This document shows, piece by piece, positions 14,470 through 47,522 of a stretch of DNA of 64,000 nucleotides. Position 1 is the first letter of the stretch; each line of letters begins with the position of its first letter. The notes under the pieces are model-generated. The model worked only from the letters and a program-made list of their open reading frames with translations, did not search any database and was not told the DNA's origin. Source of the DNA: Lentisphaerae bacterium GWF2_57_35 (GTDB taxonomy: Bacteria > Verrucomicrobiota > Kiritimatiellia > CAIQIC01 > GWF2-57-35); the NCBI GenBank assembly GCA_001804865.1, contig MHBK01000061.1:9547-73546 (forward strand). The letters run 5' to 3'. The position numbers were made by a program, and so were the translations under genes.

Positions 14470-14694
14470 AGGTACAGCCTTTGTTGGGTTTCACGCCCGC
14501 GGAGGCGCACTGCGCTTCTCTGGCTGTTCCCAAGCAGGGTAGGCGCCAGTCCTCGTACCTCCAAGGAACCGACGAAAGACGCTTCATCAAGAAAGGTATT
14601 GCCTGCTGCAAAGAAACCTAGTATGCATCTAGCATAAATTTCAAAAAATGAAAAATCAGGAAGTGTTGAACGCATGAAAAGGAGGATGGGTTTG

Positions 14695-26600: not shown

Positions 26601-29600
26601 TGGTTCGGTTGCGGCCGCTCCGGCTTGGCAACCGGACGGAACGTTTGCCATGAAGGCGCTGGCTCAAGGCTGCTACCGGGTGCAGGCGGCCGCCGGCGGT
26701 TATCTGCCGGCAGTGCAAGAGTCGATCCCGCTCGACGACCAGCACCCCGCGTCCAATCTGGTCTTCCGGCTGGAACGGGGCGCGAGTTTGACGGGCGTGG
26801 TGCGCGATGGATCAACGCTTGCGCCGGTGTCCGGGGCGTTGGTGTGCGCGTTGACGCGCAGCGGAGGCCGGCAATTCGGCCGCACGGATGCCGCCGGCGC
26901 TTATACGCTCAGGGGTTTGTCGGCCGATGGCTGGGAGATCCTGGCGATGGCCGAAGGCTATCTGAAATCGGAAGCGATCGCCGTGGAATTCGAGGCGCAC
27001 GAAACAAAGAACCAGGATTTGACCTTGATGCCGGGGGCGGTCCTCGTAGGACGGTTGGTCGGGCTGTCCGGCGCTCCTGTCACGGGGGTGACGGTCAAGG
27101 CCACGACGGAGACTTCTTCCGGCAGCGCGGCGACCGACGATCAGGGTTGGTATCGTATCGTTGGGTTGGGCGCCGGCATTCATCAACTGACGGCGGGAGG
27201 CACGGGCGGTCTGGCGCCGGCCCGAGCGGAGACGCCTTGTTTGGTTCCCGGCGCCGAAACTCGGTTGCCTGACGTCCGGCTCGTAGAGGGGGGCGTCATC
27301 AGCGGCCGGATTGTAGCCGCCCAGGATTCTTTGCCGATTGCTGGCGCCAGCCTGGCCATCGCAGGTCGGGACGACGGTCCTCAAAGCGTCATCGTTGGCG
27401 CCGACGGCAGGTTTTCCGCTGAAGGCTATCCGGCCGGCAGCTACCTCTTGTCCGCTTCGGCTCCTGACCATGCCGATGTTCAGCGCCTTGTGACGATGCC
27501 CTCCAATCTGGTTTGTGCGGCGACGGAATTGGCGTTGTCCTCTCCCGGCGTTGTGACAGGAACGGTTTGCCATGCGGCGGGCCTGCCGTTGTCGTCCGGC
27601 GTGGTGGTCCGCCTTTACAGTCCGCAAGGCCTCCGGTTGGGCGAAGTGCCGGTGGATGTGCGCGGCGGATTCCGCTACGCGCCGGTCGTGCCGGGCGCCT
27701 ATGTGGCGCTGCCGGCCTCGGACCAGTGGGCCTTTACCGGTCGTACGATCCAGGTGGCGGCCGGTTCCGTCTGTGGCGTTCGGTTCGTCGCCGAGTCGTC
27801 CGGATTAACCGGAACGGTCGTCGATGCGGCGACCGGCGATCCCATCGCCGGCGCTCAGTTGGTCTATCGATCGGAAAGGGAGCCGGCGCAGCTCTGGGAC
27901 GCTCAAACTTCCGCAAATGGCGAATACGAATTTTCCAGCCTGGCGCCCGGGCCGGGCCATCTGACCGTGTCCGCTCCTGGCAAAGGACGTGTCCGGCAAG
28001 CGGTGACCCTGCCGGCGCAGGGGCGAGCCCATTACGCGGCCGCCTTGTCGGCCGGCTACACGATCGACGGCCGCGTAACGGATGCGGCGACCGGCAAGCC
28101 GATCCCGGAGGCCTTGATTCAGGTCGTGGAGCAAAATGCCGGTCTCTGGGGCTGGCGGGTATATGCGGGCGTGGATACGAACGGTTCTTATGAAGTGGCG
28201 GATCTGCCTTCCGGCGAAATGCTGCTGCGCGTCTGCGCGACCGGTTATCCGCTCGTGGAACGGGTCGTGACGCTGAGCAGCGATATCCGGGAAGACGTGG
28301 GGCTGGCGACCAATGGGTATCGGTTGCGGCTCGTGGTGCAAGAGACTCCGGCCCATGCGCCGGTGAGCGGCGTTATGGGCCAATTGTGCCGGGACGGATC
28401 GCCTGTCGCGTCTTTCAAAACCGATGTCTCGGGGACGGCGACGATTGAACCCCTGGCCGCGGCGGTCTACGACATTCGTTGGATTTATCCGGTGGCGGAT
28501 TTGGATTCCGGCCTGTCGGTCACGGGCAACTGCGAGGTAGCGTACAACCTGGACCCGGTGACGGCCGCCCTGTCCCAAGCGGATGCCATGCACTACCGGC
28601 ATGTTCTGGATGAGCTGCCGGAACCCGAGCACTGGTGGCAATATTTGCAGAATGACTACATCCTGGCGATGTCGGAGGAGACGGCCGTCAGCTTGGCTTG
28701 CCGATTCATAGGGACCGTTACCTTCTGGATGCCCGTCAGTTGTAAGCACATGCGCCAGTTCCTGAATCAGTACAGGGAAACGATCTATCATACGCGCGAC
28801 TTTGCGGCTATGCACGTGCAGGCGGATGGGCGTTTTATCAACTTCGGCAAGGAAGTTTCGAAAGAGCTGCTTACGAAATTTCCTCACAACGCCGGTCCCG
28901 GCGCCATGATTCTGGGGCAACCGCTCAATACGCCGATAGACTATGTCGTGCCGTATACCCAGTATCGTCAGACGCATGTTCCCATCTTTTATCAGAATTC
29001 CTTCGACAGCCCGGTGTATACCGGTTTCGGCGGTATCTATTATGACGACCTGAGACTGGCTTATGGAAATGTTGACGAGGTGTTCTACTCCGGCCTCCTG
29101 AGGTACAAAAAAACGGTCGATCTGAACCTGGGACATGAGGTGATGAACGTGACGTACGATTCCTTGCTGGAGTTCACTCTGTGGGACGAATGGAACTTTG
29201 AGAAGGGATTCGGGTTCCCCGAGAATGTATTTGCCCGACTGCAATCGGAATATGGTTACCAGTCGGATTATACCTTGACGCGAACTCCGCTTCAGGTGAA
29301 GGGCACGCTCGTCTTCCCGATGTACTTAGTGCGAGTCTTTACCTCGCCGGACGAAGGCGGAACGGCCAGCGCGGAAATGATTCCGGACACCGGGGAGAAA
29401 GTCGGCGAATACTATACCCTATATTCCCAGATAACGCTAACCGCTCAACCCAAGCCCGGTTATCGTTTCAAGGAGTGGGCCAGCCTTTACCAGTACAAGC
29501 CCAAGGGCAATCCAGCCGTCATCGGCTTGTTCAAGCCCGCCTTGATGATGGCTATTTTCGAGAAAATCAACGAAACGAACAAACCGGACCCGGACCCGGA

Positions 29601-30882
29601 TAACGGCCCGCCCGCCGGCGGAAGCACGCCCATGCAATCCCATGATCCAAACGACAAGCTGGTGGATGTGGGCGTGGGCGACGAGCGCTTCATCACGGAG
29701 GGGCAGTCGTTGCGGTATACGATTCGCTTCGAGAATCAATCCAACGCCACGGCCTCGGCCCAGTTGGTGACCATTACCGATCCGCTGGATGAACGGCTGG
29801 ATTGGAGCACGCTGGAACTGGATGCGATCCAATTCGGCGATCGGGTGGTGGAGGTCCCCTCCGGCCTGCAAGCCTATGACCGCCGGGTGGACTTGCGGCC
29901 GTTCGGCAATGACCTTTTAGTGGATGTCAAAGCGCGGTTCGATCGCGAAACCGGGCGCCTTTCCTGGCTGCTGGAAGCGATCGATCCGGCGACCGGCGAA
30001 TTCACGGAAGATCCCTTTGCCGGGTTTCTCCCGCCGAACGACGCCCTGCACAGCGGCGAAGGCAGCGTCTCGTTCCGGATCAAGCCTCGCGCCGGGCTGG
30101 CCTCCGGCACGGCCATTCCCAACATCGCGAGCATTGTCTTCGATTGGAACGAACCGATTCGCACGCCGCTGGTCAACGTCACCATCGATAGCGGCCTGCC
30201 GTCCAGCCAAGTTGAGGCCCTGCCGACGGAATCGCCCTTGCGATTCATGGTGTCCTGGACCGGCCAGGACGATGTCGGCGGCAGCGGATTGGCCGGCTAT
30301 GACGTTTATGTGTCGACCGATGGCGACCCCTATGCCAAGTGGCTGATCCGGACCGAACAAGCGCGTGCCTGGTTCGAGGGGATCGAAGGCTCGGAATATC
30401 GGTTCGTCGCCTTGGCCTACGATCGGGTCGGCCACGTTGAACCCTGGCCCTCCTCCGCTCCGGATGCCTGGACGCGCGCCCTGGCGATCGCCGGTTCGCC
30501 CGGCGACGAAGATGGCGACGGCATTCCCGACGACTGGGAGCGGGCGGTATTCGGTTCGCCGCTGGCTGCCCAGGCGGTTTCCGATCACGACCGCGATGGC
30601 GTGACCGATCGGGAAGAGTACCTGGCCGGGACCGATGCGCTGAGCGCAGACTCTTCGTTCGTGCTGCATTCGCCGCAACTGGAGCATGCGTTCTCCCCGT
30701 CCTTCGTCTTGAGGTGGGCCAGCGCTACGAATCGGACGTATACGATCGTCAAATTCACCAACGGATTTTCGCAGGGCGTCATCATGACCCAGGGCATGGC
30801 CGGCCTCCCGCCGATCAATGTCTATACCGATGGGCAAGTGAACGGCAGCGCCATCTACGGCATCATGACCGGCCCGCCTTGA
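14695..30882 (+). CDS. Giant secreted multi-repeat surface/adhesin-like protein (~5,395 aa)
   Basis: AGGAGG RBS 9 nt before ATG 14695. Signal peptide MKWCTRVVMGLLFLAAGTRLVA. Four repeated right-handed beta-helix modules (GGG[VI][YH]C motifs), each ending in ...SPC[RV]NAG... plus a PKD-like WDLDGDG segment. Five Ig-like repeats containing LDQDGDG[VM]PGE. About 18 CARDB-like repeats (PDL...AGQ...W.[VT].N.G....W.D.VYLS...E[TP]NN). About 10 carboxypeptidase-regulatory-like beta-sandwich repeats. An uncharacterised ~350-aa globular region. DUF11-like repeats. Thrombospondin-type-3-like Asp-rich Ca-binding motifs (GDEDGDGIPDDWE, DHDRDGVTDREE). A C-terminal ~70-aa domain. The 16.2-kb uninterrupted frame is highly significant in itself. 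Confidence 0.85.
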   Translation: MKWCTRVVMGLLFLAAGTRLVADIHYVSPSGDNISPYTSWATAARLVSNAVSVAGAGDTVLVSNGLYFVSSEILLKQDVTLQSVQGPAATILDGSNKCRVVRMAASNAVLDGFTIQHGFVNNGGGGGVCLEGTGVVQNCVIRENKASSGYYAVGGGGVYCNRGGTVRYCEIRDNEGASSGGGVHCYLGGLVQNCAIIGNATTLYGSDGGGIYFAQGGRAENCTIGGNTAYGSGDGIYCYVQGTLENCIIYHNGDENWTPGWSNRMTYCCTTPAVGGAGNFTNDPRCLAPVDGNFRLCMDSPCRDAGLQRPEYLTALDLDGRPRVAGAGVDLGAYEAGPLQADFSATRRVGLVPLDVVYMAAVSATNVDGLWYAWDLDGDSTVDMVGYGLACVTTTYETIGWHSAALTVANAAGETSRSVKPAYYVQAGPTDVYVATNGGAAWPYADWSMAARSLQAAVDAGVTGTRVWVSNGLYVLNQPLTLAHGIYVSSMNGLESTTLTGTGGVRCLYLNHPQAAVDGFTITNGYSAMGSGAYFAEGGGSVRRCRLAGNRSYGYDGGGAVYFAAAGLVEDCEIVGNRAEYRGGGVAFVNGGMVDRCVIYGNRSSQGGGIYLSQGGLLRNSLVYGNAASYGGGASSYSGGLIENSTLCRNSASVVGGGIQGNWGGMLRNSIVYYNAAPEDANWSTEDSGLSFTNCCTFPTADGDGNQAGPPGFLDEEEFNFALMPDSPCRNAGRYETWMEGATDVRGQARATESAVDMGAMETGPLQVDIRGMNLTGPAPLAACFQTVCSGTNTTIVRYDWDLDGDGVMDWSGADGSVTTNIFTTAGHYGVICQAVNSAGETARVAKASGYVKVGPAAAYVAASGAHEYPYDTWAKAATNIQAAIGVGTYGTVVWVANGTYVSGARLAVTNHVTLKSVNGAGCTIVQGEGMDSCVYMDQAEATVEGFTIQGGSGNGGGVHIQSGGRVRYCRVTGNEAYYGAGIYCVASAVVERCEVDGNKAAQDGGGIYTEWGHNQILDCVIRNNEAGSCGGGVYADEGTLLRNCVLARNRGGYGGGGYVKDDVQVDSCTVTDNQGSYKGGGLYWDSKVEIQNSILYFNRCDSSNGGSNYFCNSCQWDGLEYIHIANTCLAPALAGDGNTDADPLFLDVENEAYSLQPGSPCVNAGVHEAWMVGGYDIEGYDRVIQGAVDMGAYEFGPLRCSFRADLREGTAPMAVVFTSFVAGTNLAGLYYKWDFNGDGVADQEGYGLQEVTNRYNDFGTFAPRLVVAGADAETQSCELPGAGIRVAPAALYVDPSGAAIYPYTNWSMAARDIQTAVDQSARGSCVWVSNGVYTLSASVTIPRAMTVRSLNGAEAATIHGNDAVQCVSLLATGATISGFTLTGGRGHLGGGVYCGRGAVVDRCRAMSNRAYHASSTLVWGGGVYCEGGTVRYSAIEDNRTAEEGYGGGGYITSSGLVEHCTILRNEGGYGGGLYVTEGSVVRNSIVAGNLALNSDYNESGGGGVYCSTESAIENCTIVNNRANRSGAGVLLYYNGYVHNSIIWSNQGANVYIFGGMGYVDHTCSTPLPAGNGNIAADPLFADLETLDVRLQPGSPCINVGTNQAWMAKDTDYQGYDRIINGRVDLGVYEFSPANTVRVSGHTPAGNALPPLGSLLIHFQYEMDPASFSIAEDILRFEGPSGAISATQAAWLSSRTLQLTFPTQTELGSYELVLGSQMSDREGRGLDQDGDGVPGESPDDEYLAAFRFPAFWVMSHEPNGERTEAVDSLRIRFSQPVQPGDCTAADVTLNGPLGSIPIANDPLRVSNDLYEVAFPRQVAGGTYALTVGPEIWSADGELLDQDGDGMPGEPEHDRYEGCFTIVDNAGPRIVSVLPAYARAAVSNLVIRFSEPMSPEHFTTEDLTLSGPDDYIVLEQITAIAPDEFQVSFPAATDAGTYSFSIGPDVRDVAGNMMDQDQDGQKGEDYDDVYYGEWVLDRTCPRVTWANPSAGELFDALTRVDVQFSEEMDFLQMTPNLATCIGPYGVVQATNIVAVSTDSARFYFPATEASGELVFRLAESACDLAGNPLDQNQNGVGGEPGDAFSRTYEQSLPDLVIGGLSGPTEAWPEQAVDVTWMATNAGPGWAAGPWHDVVRISPTAQPGPNDLVLASLEFDGELEPDGSYTRVWSGRLPALAEGRWWLHATLDASNRLAEGGGSFNNRLTTTHPLWITSRPGPDLRVDELEAAEAMIGGWKYRVTWRVANHGTAGTSAAGWQDRVYLSPQPVFDSSQAVAVSPPIRNPDFLASGESYEQEAEIVIPFDTGYGDWYLMVRADDQNQVEEFGAETNNAKGLAVSITGPNVSDEPYLSVVSIEAPAVLRAGQRPDITWTIRNTGGQTILNGWASGTGWDDGLAISPDPIYDASDYWLGSHNYWNGCPLAPGESYTTTGKPEHPIPAWAGSYYLIVVPDTHFGANAAFGASMVDRSFGVFPVTIEAGGGYLDLVVTNIITPPFLSPGQTTRIGWQVRNIAVGSLAGKSWCDRIFLSDDGSLNGALLLAEKQGPSSSIEGYDASAGIQVPADMEPGAYYLVAAADVRNELTETDENNNVGISTQTVHVVRREVDLTISTAAAPSAATSGGLLNVQWTTLNRGRDELADDVWQDAWYLSTHPEFHPVQARCLGRFKHEQTLAAGGEMTNAASVAVPFDVEGAYYVHVVCDSAGAVFEYQGETNNVYRLPGLLTVNGDAADLTVLNIQCPTQAAAGQSMSILWGITNAGNLAAEAPWMDAVYLSTNEVWSRQNARLVWCGTQTNRLAAGGMKEQAGVLVSLADGISGLYYVYVETDSRQEVYERGAEPNNIVRSLQPVTVVDYLPDLEIVSSFVTGEPAAGELVSVSWTIANRGEDYVTAPWDEAIYLSTDAVWSVEEDLLLARYTHGDEVAAGATSACPVEATSVRLPARIGGVRYLLIVTDPDGARAELCETNNVAVVSTLQLVEKSPNLTVAAVTAPPEALAGSVIPFQWTVDNRGDRAVESVGWRDAVYLSRDDVFEPQTDIEVGSVERTGPLGTGAAYSSSCSLPLRQDLEGSYQVFVATDSRGEIYEAGHEADNVSTSFVTLVVQGSRVDLCPAAFAGPAEAYAGQEAAIVWEVRNQGRDATPAVRWEDALYLSEDNRWDAQDQRLASVGYNGPLAARSQYRREHSAMLPENAAGDFFLILKTDAGSFNDVFEYQAETNNTRVQPIHIALPPPADLQPVGIANVGALWSGQSAQIEWTVRNSGLAAAAGRAGSWYDGVYLSRDPFLDRDQDIRLGSSERVGALAPEGSYAASGTFRLPRGISGPYYLLVAVDETGEVPERGGEGNNLGVSAAPISILMLPPSDLEVLTLAWSTNAIGYDDSLTLTGLAANTWSGGDSALGVWWDTLYLSSDRTWDLDDPRIARLRHEGEVAAGETYSLELATNLPSVLLGDYFVIARADILNDVRERSETNNLYVSTGVVTVVGRELVLNQPRTNRIAAGPAQMHHLAAYSNDERWVTLTPAGEGRFELYAAYGRLPGRSDYDEQATSENGEVVNLRIPATASGAYYVAVYGSATGAPAMYYLEAREAGYAIANLNLSMAGAGGQATLTVKGSGFKAGMTARLENASGVIVAEGRLQFLNAGEAAVTFDLTTAAPGTYVLIFENPDGTTVQQNFTVVPPSSEGLYVNLNPPAFVRANRSYALRLVYGNRGNRDIPAPIVKITAGGGGLISLRSGDPLEFKSSVLLLAAAPQGMAGILPPHSEYTMELPLLVNGDEYVPFNMNVIASTNVEVLDWQKYENTLRPSEMSDQEWQPMFDRFKARMGATWGSYDTRLALDATRLAPRGIDVADVDELLGYEKSLALGMGPAAVVGTVIDAASGLVLTGMVVQALQDGEYRGDAISASNGLFVISALEAGSYVLQVKDALPAEEVRVDVSAAQDALGVVVRASRGYTLTGSVSDERGWPVTNALVLLSEQSRGSVAAAPAWQPDGTFAMKALAQGCYRVQAAAGGYLPAVQESIPLDDQHPASNLVFRLERGASLTGVVRDGSTLAPVSGALVCALTRSGGRQFGRTDAAGAYTLRGLSADGWEILAMAEGYLKSEAIAVEFEAHETKNQDLTLMPGAVLVGRLVGLSGAPVTGVTVKATTETSSGSAATDDQGWYRIVGLGAGIHQLTAGGTGGLAPARAETPCLVPGAETRLPDVRLVEGGVISGRIVAAQDSLPIAGASLAIAGRDDGPQSVIVGADGRFSAEGYPAGSYLLSASAPDHADVQRLVTMPSNLVCAATELALSSPGVVTGTVCHAAGLPLSSGVVVRLYSPQGLRLGEVPVDVRGGFRYAPVVPGAYVALPASDQWAFTGRTIQVAAGSVCGVRFVAESSGLTGTVVDAATGDPIAGAQLVYRSEREPAQLWDAQTSANGEYEFSSLAPGPGHLTVSAPGKGRVRQAVTLPAQGRAHYAAALSAGYTIDGRVTDAATGKPIPEALIQVVEQNAGLWGWRVYAGVDTNGSYEVADLPSGEMLLRVCATGYPLVERVVTLSSDIREDVGLATNGYRLRLVVQETPAHAPVSGVMGQLCRDGSPVASFKTDVSGTATIEPLAAAVYDIRWIYPVADLDSGLSVTGNCEVAYNLDPVTAALSQADAMHYRHVLDELPEPEHWWQYLQNDYILAMSEETAVSLACRFIGTVTFWMPVSCKHMRQFLNQYRETIYHTRDFAAMHVQADGRFINFGKEVSKELLTKFPHNAGPGAMILGQPLNTPIDYVVPYTQYRQTHVPIFYQNSFDSPVYTGFGGIYYDDLRLAYGNVDEVFYSGLLRYKKTVDLNLGHEVMNVTYDSLLEFTLWDEWNFEKGFGFPENVFARLQSEYGYQSDYTLTRTPLQVKGTLVFPMYLVRVFTSPDEGGTASAEMIPDTGEKVGEYYTLYSQITLTAQPKPGYRFKEWASLYQYKPKGNPAVIGLFKPALMMAIFEKINETNKPDPDPDNGPPAGGSTPMQSHDPNDKLVDVGVGDERFITEGQSLRYTIRFENQSNATASAQLVTITDPLDERLDWSTLELDAIQFGDRVVEVPSGLQAYDRRVDLRPFGNDLLVDVKARFDRETGRLSWLLEAIDPATGEFTEDPFAGFLPPNDALHSGEGSVSFRIKPRAGLASGTAIPNIASIVFDWNEPIRTPLVNVTIDSGLPSSQVEALPTESPLRFMVSWTGQDDVGGSGLAGYDVYVSTDGDPYAKWLIRTEQARAWFEGIEGSEYRFVALAYDRVGHVEPWPSSAPDAWTRALAIAGSPGDEDGDGIPDDWERAVFGSPLAAQAVSDHDRDGVTDREEYLAGTDALSADSSFVLHSPQLEHAFSPSFVLRWASATNRTYTIVKFTNGFSQGVIMTQGMAGLPPINVYTDGQVNGSAIYGIMTGPP

Positions 30883-35275: not shown

Positions 35276-35686
35276 GTGAAAGACAAAGATGTAGCGCAGG
35301 AACAAGGCCTATATGGCGGCGAACGCGTCGTTAGATACGCGGTGGATGAAACCGGGCGTTACGTGAAAGTCTTGAGCAAGGGCTGGGCGCCGGCAAATGT
35401 GGCCAACGAGATGGCGATCGCTTCCTATGAAGACGAAGCCGAAAAGCAGCGGCGCCTGGTCTTGCAGGGGCAGGCCAGTCCCCTGGCCTTTCGCATGGCG
35501 CAAGCCAAGATGGATGAAGCGCTGCTGTCCGAATACGCGGGATTTTCCCGGCGAAAAGTCCGCCGCCATCTGACGCCGGAAGGCTTTCGGGCGCTTTCGG
35601 CAGAAGAGCTGGATCGGTATGCGCGGGCGTTGGGTCTCGCCCGCGAACAACTGATGAGCGCTCCCGAGGGCAAAACGACCGTATGA
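35276..35686 (+). CDS. Hypothetical protein (~136 aa) in the dar/ABC operon
   Basis: In-frame continuation of ORF 35093..35686, trimmed to the first start (GTG 35276) after the darB stop. No recognisable family. Start uncertain (alternative ATG 35411). Confidence 0.35.
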   Translation: MKDKDVAQEQGLYGGERVVRYAVDETGRYVKVLSKGWAPANVANEMAIASYEDEAEKQRRLVLQGQASPLAFRMAQAKMDEALLSEYAGFSRRKVRRHLTPEGFRALSAEELDRYARALGLAREQLMSAPEGKTTV

Positions 35687-36711
35687 CGACCGAAATTCCA
35701 TTTCCGCACGTTCAAGCGGCGCACTGCGAGAGCGGCGTCATATCTTCTCTCTTGCGCCATCGCGGCATCCCGATCGACGAACCCATGGCCTTTGGGATCG
35801 GCGCGGGCTTGTTTTTCGGCCATTTCCCGTTCGTCAAAATCGACCGGTGCCCCCTGACGACTTTTCGAATGCCTCCCGGCTTCATCATCGGCCAGTTATG
35901 CCGGGCCTTGCGGGTGAAGATCAAAAGCGAACGCTTTCAGGATCAGGCCACGGCGATGGCCGCGCTGGACAAAGCTTTAGGCGAAGGCATTCCCGTGGGC
36001 TTGCAGGTGGGCGTGTTCTGGCTGCCGTTCATGCCTCCGCCGATGAGATTTCATTTCAATGCCCATAATCTCGTGGTCTATGGCCGCAACGGAAACGATT
36101 ACCTGATCAGCGATCCTTGTTTCGAACATCCGGTGCTCTGCGAGGCCGCCGCCCTGGCCAAGGCCCGTTTTGCCAAAGGGCCGCTCGCGCCTCGCGGCCG
36201 CATGTATTATCTGCCTCCGGGGGCCGCGCCTTCGACGCCTGTGGGACCCGCGATGATCCGCGGCGCCCGACGGACCAGTTTCCTAATGATCCGGCAACCT
36301 ATTCCGTTTGTGGGTTGTCCCGGCATCGGATTTTTGGCGCGCCGCATGGAACAGTGGCCGCGCCGCGTGGGCTCCATGACGGCGGCCCGGTACATGGCCC
36401 AAGTCATCCGGATGCTGGAAGAGATCGGCACGGGAGGCTCCGGTTTCCGATTCCTGTTCGCGGCGTATTTGCGGACCATGGCCGGCTGCGTCGAGCCGGC
36501 GAAGGAATTGAAAATCCTATCGGACGAACTGACGGACATCGGCGACCGATGGATGGAGTTTGCCGTGGTCGGCGCCCGCATCTGCAAGGATCGCCTTCAG
36601 GACGAGGCGGCCTACGCCCAGGCGGCGGAAATCCTGAGGGACTGCGCCGTGCGGGAAAAAACCGCTTTCCGGCGTTTGGCAAAACTACCCCTTAAGGCGA
36701 TTCGCTCGTGA
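35683..36711 (+). CDS. BtrH_N/DUF4872-family protein (papain-like fold proteins found in acyl-transfer biosynthetic contexts)
   Basis: MTTEIPFPHVQAAHCESGVISSLLRHRGIP... matches the BtrH N-terminal domain signature (conserved Cys near the N-terminus). ATGA overlap upstream. Confidence 0.5.
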   Translation: MTTEIPFPHVQAAHCESGVISSLLRHRGIPIDEPMAFGIGAGLFFGHFPFVKIDRCPLTTFRMPPGFIIGQLCRALRVKIKSERFQDQATAMAALDKALGEGIPVGLQVGVFWLPFMPPPMRFHFNAHNLVVYGRNGNDYLISDPCFEHPVLCEAAALAKARFAKGPLAPRGRMYYLPPGAAPSTPVGPAMIRGARRTSFLMIRQPIPFVGCPGIGFLARRMEQWPRRVGSMTAARYMAQVIRMLEEIGTGGSGFRFLFAAYLRTMAGCVEPAKELKILSDELTDIGDRWMEFAVVGARICKDRLQDEAAYAQAAEILRDCAVREKTAFRRLAKLPLKAIRS

Positions 36712-37469
36712 GCCTTCCTTCCTCAACGGCCTTGGCCATCGAACTCCAGAACGTGCGGAAGAGCTATCGAAATAGCGATTCGCCGGCGTTGGATTTGGCT
36801 TCGTTGAATATCGCGCGGAACGAATTTTTTGGCCTGCTGGGGCCCAACGGAGCCGGGAAAACGACGTTGATCTCCATTCTCTACGGCATTCTCCGGGCGG
36901 ACGAGGGCTCGGTCAAGGTGCTGGGCGCTTCTCCCGACAACCGATCCATTCGCAGCCTGATGGGCTACGTTCCTCAAAACCTTGCGATCTACGAGGGGCT
37001 CACCGGCCGGGAGAATCTGCATTTCTTCGGACGGTTGTACGGCCTGAAAAAAGACGTCTTGCAGGAGAAAACAGAGCGGTTGCTGTCGCGTTTGGGCTTG
37101 GTCGATTGCGCCGATCGGCGGGTCAGCGCGTATTCCGGGGGAATGAAGCGGTTGATTAATCTGGGCGCGGGCATTCTGCATGAGCCGCCGTTGATCGTTC
37201 TCGACGAGCCGACCGTCGGCATCGATACCCATACAAGGCGATTTATTCTGGAGCTGCTCAAAGAACTCCACGCCGCCGGGGCGACCTTGTTTTTCACGAC
37301 CCATTACATCGACGAAGCCGAGCTGGGTTGTTCGCGGATTGCCATTATCGAGCACGGGAAAATCCTCGCGGAGGGAGCGTCGGGCGATCTATGCCGAAAA
37401 GCCCACTGCGAGACCCTGGAACAATTCTTTCTTTCCATAACCAAGAAAACCGCGGAAGGCTCTCCATGA
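36708..37469 (+). CDS. ABC transporter ATP-binding protein
   Basis: Walker A GPNGAGKTT, signature YSGGMKRL, Walker B LIVLDEPTVGID. Confidence 0.9.
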   Translation: MSLPSSTALAIELQNVRKSYRNSDSPALDLASLNIARNEFFGLLGPNGAGKTTLISILYGILRADEGSVKVLGASPDNRSIRSLMGYVPQNLAIYEGLTGRENLHFFGRLYGLKKDVLQEKTERLLSRLGLVDCADRRVSAYSGGMKRLINLGAGILHEPPLIVLDEPTVGIDTHTRRFILELLKELHAAGATLFFTTHYIDEAELGCSRIAIIEHGKILAEGASGDLCRKAHCETLEQFFLSITKKTAEGSP

Positions 37470-38668
37470 ACAGATGGCTGGCCCTTTTCAGCAAAGATTT
37501 AAAGCTCCTCCTTCGAGACCGGGCCGGGCTCGCGGTGCTGTTCCTCATGCCGCTGGCCTTGGTGATCGTCATCTCGATCGTGCATGACGCCGCCTTGAAG
37601 TCGCTCGAATTCAAGGCGCTTCGGGTGGCGGTGGCCATCGACCCCGCGGACCCTTTGAGCGGGCCCATTAAAAAAGCGCTGACCGAAGCGCCTGCTCTGG
37701 ATGTGGAGGAGGGGGCTGTGGACATGGAAGCCGCCATTCGGAGCGGGCGATTCAAGGCGGGCATTATCTTTCCGAAGAATTTTTCGGAAGGGATGAAGAG
37801 CTATTTGGCCGGCGCGCAGCCGGCGCCGGTCATTCAGGTGTTGTACGATCCGGCCCTGCCGGCCTCCTTCCGTCAGCTCGTGTCGCTGTCGGTGGAAAAG
37901 ACGATGACGGCGATAGAGGCGAATGTGCTCAAGGCCGCGCTGATGGGAGAGCAGCTTGAGAGCAACGACGAGCGGCTGGCCGAGCCATCCGGCGTCGCGG
38001 TCATAACCCGGCCGGACAGCGAGAAACAAGTTTACCCGACCTCCACTCAGCAGAACGTCCCGGCCTGGACCCTGTTCGCCTTGTTCTTTATCGCGCTGCC
38101 GTTGTCGGGCGCCCTTCTCGCGGAACGCCACAGCGGAATTCTAACGCGCCTGATGGTTTCGCCGGCGGCCTTCGGCGAATATTTAGGCGCCAAAGTGGCG
38201 GTCTACTGTCTCGTAGGGCTCATTCAGTTTGCGTTTATGCTGTGGGTCGGAATATGGATTCTCCCCCTGCTGGGCTTGCCGGCCTTGCAGCTGGGGACGG
38301 GATTTTTCAGGCTGTTTCTCATCGCGTTGTCTTCCTCCTTGGCCGCCGTGGGCTATGGGGTGGCCGTGGGAACCATTGCCGGCAGCCACCAGCAGGCCTC
38401 CATGTTTGGGGCCACGAGTATTGTCATCGCGGCTGCTCTGGGCGGGGTGATGGTGCCCGTCTTTGCCATGCCTCCGGGGCTTCGGCTGTTGAGCGACTTC
38501 TCGCCGCTGACTTGGGGGCTTAATGCCTATGTGGACGTTTTTTTGCGGGACAGCTCCCTCTTGGAAATTTTGCCCAATGTGGGACGGCTGCTTTGTTTTT
38601 CCTTGGTATCCACGGCCGTGGCGATCGGCTGTCATAAATACAAAAGGCTATTGCAGCATGATGCTTGA
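37466..38668 (+). CDS. ABC-2 type transporter permease
   Basis: ATGA overlap with the ATPase gene. MNRWLALFSKDLKLLLRDR... then six hydrophobic segments in the ABC-2 arrangement. Confidence 0.8.
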   Translation: MNRWLALFSKDLKLLLRDRAGLAVLFLMPLALVIVISIVHDAALKSLEFKALRVAVAIDPADPLSGPIKKALTEAPALDVEEGAVDMEAAIRSGRFKAGIIFPKNFSEGMKSYLAGAQPAPVIQVLYDPALPASFRQLVSLSVEKTMTAIEANVLKAALMGEQLESNDERLAEPSGVAVITRPDSEKQVYPTSTQQNVPAWTLFALFFIALPLSGALLAERHSGILTRLMVSPAAFGEYLGAKVAVYCLVGLIQFAFMLWVGIWILPLLGLPALQLGTGFFRLFLIALSSSLAAVGYGVAVGTIAGSHQQASMFGATSIVIAAALGGVMVPVFAMPPGLRLLSDFSPLTWGLNAYVDVFLRDSSLLEILPNVGRLLCFSLVSTAVAIGCHKYKRLLQHDA

Positions 38669-41482: not shown

Positions 41483-41514
41483 ATTACCTCGAATGATTCG
41501 TTATGCGAGATGAC

Positions 41515-42099
41515 CTAGATCTCTTTGAGAATGGCGTCTTTTCGCGTCTTGTATTCGTTTTCGTCGATCAAGCCCTTCTCAAAGAGCTCCTGCAACTTTT
41601 GGAGTCGTTCTTCCACGGTTTGCTGAGCGGGAGTTTCGGCGGCGGGAGCAGCAGCGGGGGCGGTTGCGGCGGGCTGCACGGATGAATCGACGGTGCTGCC
41701 AGCAATGCCTCCGGCTTTCTTGGCTAAAATTTTCTTGTCGATATGAGCCCGTAGATTCTGCACCCAACGGTGGTAACTCGCATGAATCTGAGTTCCATCA
41801 TACTCCAAATTCTCGCTGTCCTTGTACGAGATGGTATATTTTTTTGTGTCGTATTTGATGTCGACGACGACTTTGAATTGTCGAACCAGAAGCGTGCCGA
41901 CCATATGGCCCGGCTCCTTTTTCTCCATGCCCCAGCCCGTGATGGCGGCGGCGCCCCCTATAATGCACGCTTCTACATCCGCCAGGGTGGGTAAATCTGT
42001 TGGAGACGAGAATTCCTGAATCGGCGCCAAGCGACCAGCTTGAACATTCAACGCAACCAAAGTCATTAGGGCAAACGCAGATATCCAACGCATTTTCAT
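41515..42099 (-). CDS. Secreted/periplasmic protein with C-terminal SHOCT domain
   Basis: Signal peptide MKMRWISAFALMTLVALNVQA from the internal ATG at 42099 (the track ORF extends to 42273). C-terminal LQKLQELFEKGLIDENEYKTRKDAILKEI is a SHOCT-type motif. Confidence 0.55.
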   Translation of the reverse strand: MKMRWISAFALMTLVALNVQAGRLAPIQEFSSPTDLPTLADVEACIIGGAAAITGWGMEKKEPGHMVGTLLVRQFKVVVDIKYDTKKYTISYKDSENLEYDGTQIHASYHRWVQNLRAHIDKKILAKKAGGIAGSTVDSSVQPAATAPAAAPAAETPAQQTVEERLQKLQELFEKGLIDENEYKTRKDAILKEI

Positions 42100-42302
42100 T
42101 TTATAACCCTTTCTTGAAACCACCATTTTCTTGTTATTCCATGTACCGGTTCGACCCCGTCGTACGCCGCCGAATCGATGTGGCCTTATAGCATGACGGT
42201 AAGCCGGAAGTCCATTCCCGGATGAACGATTTTCCTGCTGGAGACGGGACCGCCTGGCCTGTCTTTTATACACATTTCATTTGAGCAACTTCTTGCGTCT
42301 CG

Positions 42303-42851
42303 TCAGTTGCCGGGCGTGAAGGGTTTGGCGGCCAGGTTGAGCTTCGGACGCGTTGGGGGTTCCACCGGGCCCGTCAGGGTGGGATCTCTCTGGGATTCGC
42401 GCAGCGCCCACAAGATCGTATCCTTGACTTCATCGTCGGTACGGGCCAGCCGTTGGGCCAGCTCGCGGGCCATGCCGCGATACACTTTGAGCCCCAGCAT
42501 GGGTTCGTCCTGCACCAATCGGTCAAACGCATCGCGTTCGAATTCGACCAGAACGGCCTGCGACAAGGCCACCACGCTCGCCGACCGAAAAATGACGCCC
42601 AAAAAGCCGACTTCCCCCAGCAAATCGCAGGCGCCCAACTCGACCAGCTTGCGATGTTTGCCGTCGCCGAGATTCTTGCGTACCTCGACCCTCCCGGAGA
42701 TGACCAGAAAAAACGAGGAGCCCGTCTGCCCCTCGTGGATGATGAAGTCGCCCCGCTGGTATTTGCGCACTTTGCCAATACTTTCCACACGGCTGATTTC
42801 CGTCGGCGTCAGATCGTCGAAAAACATATCGTCTCCATGTTTCAGGCGCAT
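42303..42851 (-). CDS. Cyclic-nucleotide-binding (cNMP/Crp-like effector) domain protein without an obvious DNA-binding domain
   Basis: Beta-roll with GEVGFLG...RSASVVA signature. Start uncertain (ATG 42851 or 42827). Confidence 0.7.
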   Translation of the reverse strand: MRLKHGDDMFFDDLTPTEISRVESIGKVRKYQRGDFIIHEGQTGSSFFLVISGRVEVRKNLGDGKHRKLVELGACDLLGEVGFLGVIFRSASVVALSQAVLVEFERDAFDRLVQDEPMLGLKVYRGMARELAQRLARTDDEVKDTILWALRESQRDPTLTGPVEPPTRPKLNLAAKPFTPGN

Positions 42852-42881
42852 AGTATAACGCAAAGAGAAGTCCGGCGGCAA

Positions 42882-43545
42882 CTCTAAGGAATTGGGAAGG
42901 ATCTTTGAGCGTTTGCTGCACCAGGTCGGACTGATGCGGCGGCAGGGTCAGAGCGAAATTCGACCGTGCCTTGCCATGCCGGGCGTGAGCCTGCGCTTCG
43001 ATCTGCATAGCCAGAATGTTCCGGCTCCAGCCGTTGGCGAGAGTCTTTTCCATGTACCAGCGGCGGGCAGCAAGGTCTTTAACCTTCTCCATTAGGACGA
43101 CATGGTGAAACCATGGAATAGCCCACAGAAGTGAATTGGACATTTGTGCCGCAGCTTGCGGCACTTTTACGAGGGGCTGCAATTGTGCCGCAGGTTGCGG
43201 CATCATTGAGCGTTCCGTTAATTTCGCCGCCGCTTGTGGCAAAACTGCGGTTGGATCAGGGTATTCCCGATAAAAAGCCAACATACGCTTGATATTCCGC
43301 TCGGAAAAACCCTTCAATTCCGGCATTTCGTTCCTCAGTTCGGTCGCCAACCTGGGAATGACGCCCGCGCCCCAACCTTCACGTTTCTGGCGTATATCGA
43401 TCGTCTGGCCAATGTCCCAATAAAGACGAACCAGCTCCGAATTGACGGCCAAAACCGCGCGGGTCTGGGCGATCTGAATACGTTGCTTCACGTCGATCAG
43501 CAGCGCGGTAAATTCTTTTCTATCGACGCTCCCTTTATTTGCCAT
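42882..43545 (-). pseudogene. Truncated YhcG/DUF1016-family protein (N-terminal domain of a PDDEXK-nuclease family protein), probable remnant
   Basis: GGAGGA RBS before ATG 43545. KEFTALLIDVKQRIQIAQTRAVLAVNSELVRLYWDIGQTI...EGWGAGVIPRLATELRNEMPELKGFSERNIKRMLAFY matches the DUF1016 N-terminus. No C-terminal nuclease domain. The frame instead reads through 350 bp into the cNMP gene (track ORF 42523..43746). Confidence 0.55.
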
Positions 43546-43761
43546 GGTCGATATCCTCCAAGTTGGCCCAGATGAGTTAGTCGAGTTTGACGGCTTGTTT
43601 GGTTTGTTCGAACAGATCGTCGAAAAACATATAGTCTCCCTTTCCGGACGCCTATCATAGCGCAACGCGTCCCTGTTCGCAACTCCGACGCTCATCGCAA
43701 AATCGCTCTTGGAGACCCTGCGGTTTGCTGATATAGACAAAGGCATTCAAGGAGGTAGATT

Positions 43762-44298
43762 ATGAATTGTCCAGCTTGCAAAAAAGGTCCTTTGGAATCC
43801 AGCGAGCATGTCGAGCTTCCCAAAACGTTGCTATGCCCCTATTGCCAGGGCCAATGGATACAGGCGTCCAGATATTGGAGCTGGGTTGAACAGCATGGCG
43901 CCAATCTGCCCGAGAAGCCGGCGCCCGAACAAGTCTGGCAGCCCATCGACAGCCATCGCATTCTTCTGTGCCCGGAATGCGGCGCCTTGATGATGCGGTT
44001 CAAAGTGGGTCATGGCGTCGGGTTTTCCATCGATCATTGCAGCGCCTGCGGCGGCATCTGGTTCGATCGGAACGAGCTGGAGGCTTTGAAGGATCGCAAC
44101 CTGCACGACGACATCCATTTCATCTTCAGCCAGGCTTGGCAACACCAAGTACAATCGCAGCAAAACAACGCACTCTACCAGAAGCGAATGGAGCAGTTGT
44201 TGGGCGCGGAAGACTTCCTGGAAGCCAAGCGGATCAAGGGCTGGTTGTCCCAACATCCGAAGCGCTCGATCATCCAGGCGTATTTAACGAACAAATAA
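43762..44298 (+). CDS. Protein with two TFIIB-type zinc-ribbon domains
   Basis: CPACKKG...CPYCQGQW and CPECGA...CSACGGIWFDRNELEAL. Confidence 0.6.
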   Translation: MNCPACKKGPLESSEHVELPKTLLCPYCQGQWIQASRYWSWVEQHGANLPEKPAPEQVWQPIDSHRILLCPECGALMMRFKVGHGVGFSIDHCSACGGIWFDRNELEALKDRNLHDDIHFIFSQAWQHQVQSQQNNALYQKRMEQLLGAEDFLEAKRIKGWLSQHPKRSIIQAYLTNK

Positions 44299-44312
44299 GG
44301 AGTCCAGTCCCC

Positions 44313-45365
44313 ATGAAACATTCGATTCTCGCCTGTCTCTCGTTATGCCTGGGTACGGCGTATGCTGGTACGGCGCCGTTGGTGATTGACCATACCTGCA
44401 CGGACATCTCGCAGATTCCCGCCGCCTGGATTGCGGCGGTCAAATCCAATGTGGTCTGGCACTACGCGCATACCTCCCATGGCAGTCAGCTCAACAGCGG
44501 CTTGGCGGTGCTGAACAATCAGGATGCGCGGTTCGGTTTCGCGCGCGGCTACTGTTCGCTGCCCTCCACGCCCAATGCCTTGCGCATGTACGACGGACAG
44601 ATCGACAACGACTATATTTCTCCCGATCTTTACTGGGAGGGCTCCTCCGGGATCGCGCTTACCCAGCAGGTCCTGAGCAACAATCCCTCGCTGAATGTCT
44701 CCATGTGGGCTTGGTGTGGGCAGGCCGGCTATTACAACTCCACGCAAATATCGAATTATCTCCACCAGATGTCCGCGTTCGAGACGCAGTTCCCCAACGT
44801 GACCTTCGTCTATATGACCGGTCATCTGGACGGCAGCGGCGTGAATGGAACCCTGAACCGGCAAAACAACATGATCCGCGAGTACTGCCGCAAGAACAAC
44901 AAGGTCCTTTTCGATTTTGCCGACATCGAAAGTTACGATCCGAGCGGAAACGAATTTATGAGTCGCGACGCTACAGACGAATGCGATTATTCGGGCGGCA
45001 ACTGGGCGGTCGAATGGTGCGCCGCCCATCCGGGCAGTCCCTTGTGCGATTACTGCGATTGCGCGCACTCTCAGCCGGTGAACTGCAACCAAAAAGGCCG
45101 TGCGGCGTGGTGGATGTTTGCCCGGCTGGCCGGCTGGCCGGGAGCTCCTTCCGGAGCTTCCTCCCAACTCCAGCCTGGAGGCGGCCTGGAGTTGGGCTGG
45201 GATAATCTCTGCTCCGGCACGGTGTATCAAGTAAGTCAGACCACCGGCTTGACGAACCAGGCGTGGGTAGCCGAAACCATTTTCACGAATCGAGGCTTCC
45301 AGCAAATCTGGACCAACTCCAATCCGACTCATCCGGCGGCTTTTTACCGACTCGAGCGCAGGTAG
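44313..45365 (+). CDS. Secreted Cys-rich hypothetical protein
   Basis: AAGGAG RBS. Signal peptide MKHSILACLSLCLGTAYA. No family recognised. C-terminal Cys cluster. Confidence 0.55.
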   Translation: MKHSILACLSLCLGTAYAGTAPLVIDHTCTDISQIPAAWIAAVKSNVVWHYAHTSHGSQLNSGLAVLNNQDARFGFARGYCSLPSTPNALRMYDGQIDNDYISPDLYWEGSSGIALTQQVLSNNPSLNVSMWAWCGQAGYYNSTQISNYLHQMSAFETQFPNVTFVYMTGHLDGSGVNGTLNRQNNMIREYCRKNNKVLFDFADIESYDPSGNEFMSRDATDECDYSGGNWAVEWCAAHPGSPLCDYCDCAHSQPVNCNQKGRAAWWMFARLAGWPGAPSGASSQLQPGGGLELGWDNLCSGTVYQVSQTTGLTNQAWVAETIFTNRGFQQIWTNSNPTHPAAFYRLERR

Positions 45366-45509
45366 CAACTCCTCATGATAATGGTTGCTGTTGAACTATA
45401 CAGAGAACTTGTTTGACGCATATGTTAAAGAGAAAAAATCTCTCAAAAGTATTGTAATTTTTGGAAAGATAGTAAATAATTGATTTCTAAAGAGAAAAGG
45501 TCTCCTAAA

Positions 45510-46880
45510 ATGTTGATTAACTTTCGGTTTGGAAATTATCTTTCATTTCGGGACGAGGTTGAGTTCACATGTTTAGCATCACGTGAGAAACAGCATGCTG
45601 AACGAGTGTTTCGTTCTCCGAGGCTTAAATTTCGGATACTTCCCTTAGCGACGATTTGGGGTGCAAACGGATCTGGGAAATCTAATTTTTACTATGCTAT
45701 TCAATTTGCTCGCCGGTTTATAGTGCGAGGAAAATCACGACCTGAAGATAGGATCGATGTTGAACCGTTTAAGCTAGATCCTGCGTATTTGGCGTTGCCG
45801 ACATCGTTTGGCTTTGATCTTCTGATTAACGATCATATTTATAGCTATCAATTTTCTGTAACTCGAGAGCGTGTAGTCAGTGAGTCATTGGATGAAGTAA
45901 AAGGTGAAAAAAGGACACGTATATACTCAAGAGGCTGGACTGACTCTGGAACTCCTGTTTGGGACATTGAATACTTCCGCAAACTGGATATGTCCGAAGA
46001 TGATAAGCAATTCATTGAATTTAAGACGCGAGATACTCTTCCCAACCAACTCTTTTTAAGTGAATTGAGAGGAAAAAAAATTCCGATTCTTGACAATGTG
46101 GGCGAATGGTTTCGACGTAACCTCGTGTTGCTAGATCCGAACGCTGTTTTTAAACCTATTGAGCTTAGTCTTCAGCAAGTCGAAGAATTCCGTAGATATG
46201 CAGCCGATCTGCTGCAAAAAGCAGGAACTGGGATTTATTCATTGGAAAATGAGATGGTTGCCATTGAGTCTCTTCCTTTATCTGAGCCGCAGAAGGCAGA
46301 AATTACGAAAATGCTATCCGCGTCTGGAGACAAGGCCATGTTCCAAGTTGAAGGACCAGAACGTCGTCGTTTTCTCGTCTTTCGTGAAGGAAACGAAACT
46401 AAAGCCATGAAGCTCGTAGCAAATCACAACGACTGCAATGCCAGGCGTGTAGCGTTTGAAATGACAGATGAATCTGAAGGAACTCAAAGATTGATCGATC
46501 TTTTATCTGCATTCTATGAACTCAGTAATCCAACTACTGAGAAAGTATTTGTCATCGATGAATTGGATCGCAGTCTGCACACATTGCTCACTCGTTCGTT
46601 AGTAGAGAGTTTTCTGTCCGTACGACAGTCCTCATCGCGAGGACAATTGATTTTCACAACGCATGATGGGCTACTTCTGGATCAGAATCTTATGCGGAGA
46701 GATGAAGTTTGGTTCATTGATAAGAATGCACAGGGCGCATCAGCGCTGTCATCACTGAGTGATTTTGATGTGAGGTATGATAAGGACATCAGAAAGAGTT
46801 ACCTGCAAGGACGCTTCGGCGGTATTCCAAATATATGGGGATTGCCAAAACAAGCCTTAAATGCGAAGAAAGAAGACTAA
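45510..46880 (+). CDS. AAA_21/AAA_15-type ABC-like ATPase (RloA/AbiLi-like) in the low-GC island
   Basis: Walker A GANGSGKSNF, Walker B VFVIDELDRSLH, and LIFTTHD motif. AAAAGG RBS. Alternative upstream ATG 45480. Local GC ~40% against ~63% in the flanks. Confidence 0.8.
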   Translation: MLINFRFGNYLSFRDEVEFTCLASREKQHAERVFRSPRLKFRILPLATIWGANGSGKSNFYYAIQFARRFIVRGKSRPEDRIDVEPFKLDPAYLALPTSFGFDLLINDHIYSYQFSVTRERVVSESLDEVKGEKRTRIYSRGWTDSGTPVWDIEYFRKLDMSEDDKQFIEFKTRDTLPNQLFLSELRGKKIPILDNVGEWFRRNLVLLDPNAVFKPIELSLQQVEEFRRYAADLLQKAGTGIYSLENEMVAIESLPLSEPQKAEITKMLSASGDKAMFQVEGPERRRFLVFREGNETKAMKLVANHNDCNARRVAFEMTDESEGTQRLIDLLSAFYELSNPTTEKVFVIDELDRSLHTLLTRSLVESFLSVRQSSSRGQLIFTTHDGLLLDQNLMRRDEVWFIDKNAQGASALSSLSDFDVRYDKDIRKSYLQGRFGGIPNIWGLPKQALNAKKED

Positions 46881-46882
46881 TC

Positions 46883-47485
46883 ATGTCTCCTCGTTGTGAT
46901 GGATTCCGTCGGCAAATAGGCTATAGAAAGCCCAAGAAGCACTTTCATATAGCGACGGAAGGAAATGAAACAGAGCCTCGCTATTTCGAACTGTTTAAAA
47001 CAACGCGTGAGGATGAGATTCAGCTTAAAATTATTCCTAGCAAACACAAATCTAGACCGTTACAGGTTTTGGAGCATCTAAAACTGCATGTTGCAAAGAA
47101 TGGACGTAAAGGAGATGAAGCTTGGTTGGTCATTGATCGCGATGCTTGGGATGAAGCCGAATTGAACGATGTATTCAGAGAGGCTCAATCTTATGGATAT
47201 GAGGTGGCTCTTAGCAATCCGTGCTTTGAATTATGGCTGTATCTTCACATGAGAGACAATCGGTTGTTTGCAAATAGACATCAATGCCAAGATATGCTCC
47301 AGGATGTTTTAGATGGATATGATCCTAATAAGAAATCTACATATAAAACTGAGTGTCTCTTGCCAAATGTAGATATGGCTATTCAGCGCGCACAAGGATT
47401 AGACCTGCATCCCAATGATTTGTGGCCTCGAAACCAAGCAACTCGGGTATACAAACTAATTCATCGCATACGAAGAAATCTTTAG
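46883..47485 (+). CDS. RloB-like (AbiLii-like) protein, partner of the upstream ATPase
   Basis: HIATEGNETEPRYFELF resembles the RloB-family N-terminal motif (CEGEKTEPNYF). Starts 2 nt after the ATPase stop. ~200 aa. Confidence 0.65.
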   Translation: MSPRCDGFRRQIGYRKPKKHFHIATEGNETEPRYFELFKTTREDEIQLKIIPSKHKSRPLQVLEHLKLHVAKNGRKGDEAWLVIDRDAWDEAELNDVFREAQSYGYEVALSNPCFELWLYLHMRDNRLFANRHQCQDMLQDVLDGYDPNKKSTYKTECLLPNVDMAIQRAQGLDLHPNDLWPRNQATRVYKLIHRIRRNL

Positions 47486-47522
47486 CAGGGAGAGTGACTG
47501 AAGGATGGAATGCTGCTAATCC

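Follow-up and report, generated by a model that had tools for sequence, protein, structure and literature searches.

A probable AbiL-type anti-phage module in a low-GC islet within the aryl-polyene-type cluster of Lentisphaerae bacterium GWF2_57_35

What is a short, AT-rich segment with two genes doing inside a bacterial pigment cluster, and what do those genes encode? The question is raised by a stretch of 64,000 nucleotides (nt) from contig MHBK01000061.1 of Lentisphaerae bacterium GWF2_57_35 (hereafter, the window), in which a 2.2-kb islet of low guanine plus cytosine (GC) content carries genes for an ATPase and for a small protein of the RloB family. We consider it likely that the islet was acquired horizontally and constitutes a complete anti-phage module in itself, made up of a gene pair of the AbiL (AbiLi/AbiLii, RloA/RloB-like) type and equipped with its own AT-rich leader. 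The features of the islet, with protein lengths in amino acids (aa), are as follows.

45366–45509, + strand: AT-rich leader with a candidate promoter and a purine-rich stretch ahead of the ATG (GC 0.20–0.37 in 30-nt steps)
45510–46880, + strand: abiLi-like gene, an ABC-type (AAA_21) ATPase of 456 aa from the ATG (Pfam, PADLOC, motifs, model)
45660–45689, + strand: Walker A motif GANGSGKSNF, ATPase residues 51–60 (alignment and translation)
46545–46580, + strand: Walker B motif and D-loop, VFVIDELDRSLH, ATPase residues 346–357, containing VIDELDRSLH (alignment and translation)
46883–47485, + strand: abiLii-like gene, a 200-aa RloB-family protein, starting 2 nt past the ATPase stop codon (Pfam, PADLOC, model)
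46949–46987, + strand: IATEGNETEPRYF motif, RloB residues 23–35, with the candidate catalytic Glu (alignment and translation)
47111–47155, + strand: GDEAWLVIDRDAWDE motif, RloB residues 77–91, a candidate DxD metal site (alignment and translation)
47486–47522, no strand: spacer of 37 nt between the convergent stop codons of the RloB and radical SAM genes (reading-frame ends)

The GC content between the flanking stop codons (45366–47522) is 0.414. Segments of the same size elsewhere in the window (n = 1151) have a mean of 0.602, a standard deviation of 0.024 and a minimum of 0.536, and the islet lies at z = −7.9 with respect to them. Measured over 300 nt, the GC content is 0.36–0.45 from approximately 45400 to approximately 47500, compared with 0.55–0.65 before and 0.53–0.63 after, and the cumulative deviation of GC has its change points at 45362 and approximately 47553. 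The strongest signal is carried by the third codon positions, where the GC content (GC3) is 0.37 in the ATPase gene and 0.35 in the RloB gene, versus 0.60–0.79 in 13 neighbouring genes. The low-GC interval comprises the leader and exactly two open reading frames (ORFs), which are tightly coupled on the + strand; the fall to about 40% GC over exactly two genes, as described in the original prediction, is thus confirmed. The same holds for their placement between a secreted-protein gene and a radical SAM gene. On the left, the + strand gene that stops at 45365 encodes a product with a signal-peptide-like N-terminus, and on the right, the radical SAM gene on the − strand stops at 47523. The promoter and terminator scan reported no terminator-like site in the 47486–47522 spacer.

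On the right, GC recovers at approximately 47553, a point about 30 nt into the radical SAM gene from its 3′ end; over its final 30 nt, this gene has a GC content of 0.40. The C-terminal tail that they specify (TPPDKSKSLQQN) has no counterpart in relatives, whose own tails range from 0 to about 20 residues. In view of the unmatched tail and the late recovery of GC, the insertion may, at its right junction, have altered the final codons of the radical SAM gene.

The product of the first gene matches Pfam AAA_21 with an E-value (E) of 6.5e-32 and 112 bits (gathering score 27), and the PADLOC model AbiLi with E of 6e-82; among the other PADLOC models, AriA comes closest, at 3.1e-31. An alternative start is available upstream, at the TTG at 45480. 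The Walker A and Walker B motifs that had marked the protein as an ABC-type ATPase are both present. Conservation was judged in an alignment of the window protein with 29 homologues, in which the following residues are invariant and retained in the window protein: G51, N53, G56 and K57 of Walker A, E321, S322, G324 and R327 of the signature, D350 and E351 of Walker B, and H385 of the H-loop. The Q-loop residue Q180 is also present and is at least 90% conserved. A sequence search of the PDB with the ATPase returned no match, and no NCBIfam model matches either this protein or the RloB protein. The AlphaFold2 model of the ATPase (pLDDT, the predicted local distance difference test, of 89) was used to search the PDB with Foldseek, and hits were returned for PtuA, the OLD protein of Thermus scotoductus, and the heads of Rad50/SbcC and SMC proteins, with E of about 1e-9 and probability 1.00. 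Given the intact invariant motifs and these structural matches, the protein looks like a catalytically competent ABC ATPase of the OLD/PtuA/Rad50 kind, and by analogy with related systems it would serve as the sensor or regulator subunit of the pair. An ABC transporter ATPase encoded within 35683–38668 (+ strand) of the window also matches AAA_21 (7.4e-16), so that a match to this family alone is not specific to defence ATPases.

The product of the second gene matches Pfam RloB (PF13707) with E of 1.9e-38 over profile positions 2–195 of 195, and PADLOC AbiLii with 3.6e-23; even at E ≤ 10, only RloB and AbiLii models match. The N-terminal motif from which an RloB-family protein had been proposed 2 nt downstream of the ATPase gene is the IATEGNETEPRYF segment at residues 23–35. 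Across 42 members of the family, residues G27, E31, Y34, P59, D78, W81, I84 and D85 are invariant, as are S111, N112, P113, F115, E116, W118 and H122, while E26 and D87 are each at least 90% conserved. In the AlphaFold2 model (pLDDT 92.8), strands and helices alternate in a beta-alpha-beta arrangement. E26 directly follows strand 1 (residues 19–25), and D85-x-D87 is found at the end of strand 3 (residues 79–85); this placement corresponds to the positions of the Glu and the DxD in the four-stranded parallel sheet of Toprim domains. The local sequences are in keeping with it, as the two motifs take the forms hhh-E-G-x-x-E and h-h-D-x-D also found in the Toprim domains of OLD and GajA: the segment IATEGNETE resembles LLVEGKTE of P2 Old, LLIEGPSE of GajA and LLVEGYGD of the Thermus OLD, and LVIDRD resembles ILADCD of P2 Old and IIKTDND of GajA. 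A Foldseek search of the viral structure database BFVD with the model gave a sole significant match, to a phage RloB-like protein (TM-score 0.73). In published work, HHpred relates RloB to OLD_TOPRIM (PMC10440598), and AbiL is listed among the systems that combine an ABC ATPase with a TOPRIM protein (PMC11464382; PMC12409363). The Toprim assignment of the window protein is one of motif, topology and published work, and we stop short of claiming the Toprim fold itself. By analogy, the protein is predicted to be the metal-dependent nuclease effector of the pair.

The two genes together display the hallmarks of AbiL, namely adjacent and co-oriented genes with the ATPase upstream, matches to both profiles and intact ATPase motifs. 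AbiL (AbiLi/AbiLii) is an abortive-infection system of the Lactococcus lactis plasmid pND861 and is modelled in both PADLOC and DefenseFinder. PADLOC assigns both AbiL components to the two adjacent genes of the window, and the AAA_21 and RloB domains are assigned likewise, all of which is supportive of the AbiL-type two-gene architecture first read from the DNA. Since only 2 nt separate the genes, they are probably co-transcribed and translationally coupled. As in AbiL, an AAA_21 ABC ATPase comes first and an RloB-family protein of about 200 aa second, and the pair of the lactococcal prophage proPhi7, which carries an abortive phage resistance annotation, aligns with both window proteins. In contrast to the lactococcal copy, to which it is approximately 28–29% identical, the window pair resides in a Gram-negative host of the PVC superphylum, is chromosomal and lies within a pigment cluster.

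Other systems resemble the pair in part. PARIS shares the split architecture of an ABC ATPase and a small nuclease, and its AriA model matches the window ATPase (3.1e-31); in PARIS, however, the effector AriB is a DUF4435 Toprim protein, whereas that of the window is an RloB protein, no AriB model was matched, and the window ATPase is far better matched by the AbiLi model than by that of AriA. The ATPase model also matches the Thermus OLD structure (PDB code: 6p74; E 1.5e-9), but class 1 OLD proteins (P2 Old and Thermus scotoductus OLD) and GajA are single polypeptides, while the corresponding functions are divided between two genes in the window, and the window RloB protein has no significant profile or Foldseek match to the OLD Toprim. 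PtuA of Septu is the top structural match of the window ATPase (PDB code: 8sux; E 9.9e-10), although the Septu effector is an HNH nuclease and the partner here is an RloB protein.

The pairing recurs well beyond this genome. Identity of the window proteins to their nearest homologues is 59% for the ATPase and 60% for the RloB protein, and in the four nearest contexts (loci L028, L029/L030, L031 and L027) the ATPase gene is directly followed by the RloB gene. A Geminocystis plasmid carries the same pair (39.5% and 38% identical), with the partner annotated as an RloB family protein, and so does proPhi7, where the pair occupies a moron position after the lysin gene, is approximately 28–29% identical and has each of its genes annotated as encoding an abortive phage resistance protein. 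With the ATPase as the tblastn query, hits were returned in 101 records from plasmids (E ≤ 1e-10) and in 10 from phages (E ≤ 1e-5). Named relatives come from Puniceicoccaceae, Opitutales, Kiritimatiellia and Oleiharenicola, all belonging to the PVC superphylum of the host, as well as from Deltaproteobacteria, Myxococcales, Balneolaceae and Chloroflexota. The possibility that low GC is intrinsic to the family was considered and rejected: homologous pairs elsewhere have a GC content of 0.47–0.58, and the low GC of the islet is therefore a mark of transfer and not a family property.

In one of the nearest contexts (L027), the RloB gene is intact at 9379–9993 and its product 100% identical to the protein P0122, yet it is absent from the JGI gene calls. 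That pair sits in a contig of 418 kb and is AT-shifted, with GC of 0.47 versus 0.63 in the flanks; the gene upstream of it encodes HATPase_c and Topo-VIb_trans domains.

A further set of ATPase relatives is longer, at approximately 633–647 aa, with 43–47% identity to the window protein (L032 6001–9975, from Oleiharenicola lentus, and P0055, P0064, P0066, P0068 and P0077). These carry a C-terminal extension of about 180 aa that has no Pfam match and no similarity to RloB. An interpretation of them as ATPase–RloB fusions was rejected, as the C-terminal part shows neither an RloB match nor similarity to AbiLii. The gene that follows in O. lentus (687 aa) matches the PADLOC model LmuB at 2.9e-16, and the neighbours encode TIR_2 and Prok-E2/ThiF/JAB domains. 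The long ATPases with an LmuB-like partner may represent an undescribed variant of a defence system, generated by partner swapping and located in a defence island.

How such a pair might act can be sketched by analogy with PARIS, P2 OLD and the AAA/Toprim toxin–antitoxin pairs. AbiLi would oligomerise and keep the small nuclease-like AbiLii in check until a phage-derived cue alters the state of AbiLi, whereupon AbiLii would be released or activated. AbiLii would then cut nucleic acid by means of its E/DxD metal site; transfer RNA (tRNA) is the leading candidate for the target, and DNA, which is cut by GajA of Gabija, is the alternative. The cut would stop translation or replication and so abort the infection. 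PARIS is the best mechanistic template, with a sensor ATPase that sequesters an effector and a trigger that frees it: the AriA hexamer sequesters AriB, phage proteins trigger its release, and AriB cleaves tRNA (PMC11464382, PMC12409363). AriB and P2 OLD are both tRNases (PMC12409363, PMC12445682), and AAA/Toprim pairs act as antitoxin and toxin (PMC10440598). It is conceivable, though we regard it as doubtful, that AbiLii is a minimal Toprim-like tRNase of 200 residues, held by AbiLi and freed upon sensing of a phage protein, in a PARIS-like manner but with an unrelated and much smaller effector family.

The comparison with toxin–antitoxin pairs leads to the alternative that fares best, in which the pair is mainly an addiction module, with RloB as toxin and the ATPase as antitoxin, that is selfish and stabilises the DNA in which it resides without any role in defence. 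In the NetFlax survey, an AAA ATPase (node D29) with RloB-like/TOPRIM_OLD partners forms part of the type II toxin–antitoxin network, and toxicity and neutralisation were validated for AAA/Toprim pairs (PMC10440598); the islet is, moreover, a minimal two-gene unit without other cargo. The two readings are, however, not exclusive, as PARIS is both (PMC13064643), and the prototype AbiL was defined by its phage-resistance phenotype (Deng et al. 1999, according to the passage of PMC13064643 that cites it). Homologues of the pair also adjoin defence genes, examples being HSDR_N in L029 and, in L048, AbiEii beside an OLD gene. We judge a purely addictive role to be unlikely.

The proteins identical to those of the window are on record as the hypothetical proteins A2X46_17870 and A2X46_17875 of the metagenome-assembled genome 'Lentisphaerae bacterium GWF2_57_35', and 6 contigs of 20–200 kb from NCBI, JGI, ENA and Logan assemblies contain the same protein amid a largely unchanged set of neighbouring genes. 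Around the islet lies an aryl-polyene-type cluster, in line with the pigment region recognised originally. It runs on the − strand from 59161 down to 47523 and encodes FabG, a ketosynthase (KS), an acyl carrier protein (ACP), an acyltransferase, an AMP-ligase, an ApeP-like protein, an aromatic amino acid lyase, LolA, an MMPL-like exporter, a DUF3261 protein and the B12-binding radical SAM enzyme; beyond a gap, ACP, KS and chain length factor (CLF) genes follow at 41482–39072. The pair takes up one end of this gap, and the remainder is the following feature.

41483–45365, no strand: rest of the non-cluster mosaic that splits the aryl-polyene cluster (domain search, GC3)

The genes of the mosaic encode a SHOCT lipoprotein-like product, a cNMP-binding protein, a DUF1016_N remnant, a Zn-ribbon protein and the product with the signal-peptide-like N-terminus. 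Their GC3 of 0.60–0.76 is host-like. The relatives used for comparison were 24 loci with a homologous radical SAM gene, of which 22 are at 51–62% identity, the exceptions being a fragmented match (L025) and one at 25% identity (L026). In 11 of the 24, a run of ACP, KS and CLF genes lies on the same strand approximately 2.1–5.2 kb downstream of the radical SAM gene, and in the two that were read through (L003 and L024) the gap of about 2.2 kb holds a GT2 glycosyltransferase and a lipid-A-type acyltransferase. The gap in the window measures 6.0 kb (41483–47522) and contains neither. The AbiL pair is present at none of the 24 radical SAM loci, and thus is not part of a conserved island, and the other genes of the 6-kb gap have no homologue in any of them. 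As the pair alone is compositionally foreign among gap genes with host-like GC3, it is the latest layer in a spot already remodelled; the operon was probably interrupted before the pair arrived at one end of the 6-kb mosaic.

A homologue of the lipid-A-type acyltransferase, 34% identical to that of L003, is encoded at 12626–13849 (+ strand), about 30 kb from the pigment cluster, and a search of the window for GT2 homologues at E ≤ 1e-3 found none. Relative to its counterparts in related genomes, the aryl-polyene cluster appears to have undergone rearrangement here.

The mosaic also bears on the alternative that the pair has lost its function and is the decaying residue of an earlier defence island. 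Within it, at 42900–43560 (− strand), is a truncated gene of the DUF1016/YhcG type in which the N-terminal domain is complete (DUF1016_N 1.2e-38) and the C-terminal half, with its nuclease domain, has no match; the frame runs into the cNMP-binding gene and is uncalled in the public record. This fragment points to earlier gene decay in the 6-kb gap, and the pair could conceivably have shared its fate. Both ORFs of the pair are, however, of full length (456 aa, against 450–459 aa in homologues, and 200 aa, against approximately 200–210 aa), every invariant residue is kept, and there is no frameshift or internal stop, which makes a remnant very unlikely.

RloA and RloB are restriction-linked ORFs of the type I restriction-modification loci of Campylobacter jejuni, and the pair could on that account be a RloA/RloB accessory of such a system, as in the Campylobacter hsd loci. 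The second protein does belong to the Pfam family named after the restriction-linked ORF RloB and is likewise paired with an ATPase, and in the close homologous pair L029 an HSDR_N-domain gene is next. In contrast to C. jejuni, the window pair is neither within nor beside hsd genes: those examined over approximately 35.7–59.2 kb include none that is hsd-like and belong to the pigment cluster, to ABC transporters or to a group of small genes unrelated to either, and most of the homologous pairs examined stand alone. We consider a restriction accessory most improbable, and the label 'restriction-linked' given in the original prediction does not apply to the window copy, because there are no adjacent type I restriction genes. 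Equally improbable is that the low-GC segment is an assembly chimera with DNA of an AT-richer organism, as its source in a metagenome-assembled genome and the abrupt shift in composition might suggest, since the 6 contigs from several sources are concordant and both junctions coincide exactly with gene ends, a single contig returns to host-like DNA on either side, and the related L027 pair is likewise AT-shifted inside its 418-kb contig.

The leader of the putative AbiL-type module gave no RNA structure signal relative to shuffled sequence (z = 0.20) and no match in an Rfam search. It contains an imperfect direct repeat of 23 nt, at 45426–45448 and 45488–45510 (TAAAGAGAAAA..TCTC..AAAA), with copies that are 83% identical and 62 nt apart. 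Each copy holds a GAGA-N5-TCTC palindrome, and the second overlaps the start codon. The repeat could be an operator, a translational control site or a product of chance in AT-rich DNA.

Several results weigh against the interpretation of the islet as an acquired AbiL-type module, and they concern its arrival, its expression and the nature of its effector. The two islet borders have no common word of at least 7 nt, direct or inverted, the 64 kb contain no tRNA genes, and no recombinase or integrase domains were found among the genes of the 6-kb gap. Target-site duplications and terminal inverted repeats are likewise absent from the borders, which accordingly show neither the direct repeats nor the integrase remnants that might have been expected there. 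The islet thus lacks the hallmarks of a site-specific-integration island, that is, flanking repeats, a tRNA target and an integrase or transposase. A scan of contigs from genomes with the radical SAM protein gave no empty site or close relative, the nearest being at 51–62% identity, and in a scan of metagenome contigs with the upstream gene, identity reached 54% at most and synteny was absent. The recent horizontal insertion originally proposed is therefore upheld in so far as composition and absence from distant relatives (51–62%) argue for it, and lacks the support that a close relative, an empty site, a repeat or an integrase would have lent. The nearest homologues of the pair itself, moreover, are only 59–60% identical to it.

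With respect to expression, promoter-like sites are no commoner in the leader than in shuffled sequence, and because of this the sigma-70-like TTGTAA-17-AATAAT at 45452–45480 is graded a candidate promoter only; the promoter and terminator scan as a whole gave no excess of sites over chance. As for the effector, the best Foldseek match of the RloB model in the PDB had E of 0.019 and was among unrelated alpha/beta folds, and a search of PDB sequences with the RloB profile returned a chance match at E of 0.96 only. The RloB alignment was also compared by hhalign with P2 Old alone, with a probability of 0.1%, and with a 9-sequence class 1 OLD Toprim profile made from P2 Old and eight plasmid OLD proteins, with a probability of 1.5% and out of register. 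The suggested kinship to the ATPase and nuclease pairs of OLD and PARIS consequently stands on the side of motif, topology and literature, while the profile and fold comparisons of RloB to Toprim are non-significant. Finally, according to a 2026 review, whether AbiL and RloAB act like PARIS remains to be determined (PMC13064643).

Two further loci of the window lie apart from the islet. A single ORF of 5402 aa occupies 14674–30882 (+ strand); a PKD domain is present in its N-terminal 1500 aa, and at least 6 CarboxypepD_reg repeats and a DUF7619 domain in its C-terminal 1500 aa. It probably encodes a giant surface or adhesin-like protein. The genes at 35683–38668 (+ strand), just upstream of the CLF, KS and ACP genes, encode a BtrH_N/DUF4872 protein, the ABC transporter ATPase mentioned above and an ABC-2 permease.

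The islet is tidy but ordinary, and it leaves current understanding unchanged. With it, a known and catalogued defence family gains a clean, intact module of AbiL type whose host is an uncultured member of the Lentisphaerae, and two proteins that were only 'hypothetical protein' in the public record receive a name. It also illustrates that a biosynthetic gene cluster can take in a minimal defence islet of two genes with no recognisable mobility genes, and that such islets can be found from composition alone. For the general question of how AbiL works, which dates back to 1999, any well-behaved homologue is a possible experimental handle. Should AbiLii prove to be a PARIS-like tRNase, this well-folded pair from the PVC clade could be a tractable model for the mechanism of AbiL and RloAB.

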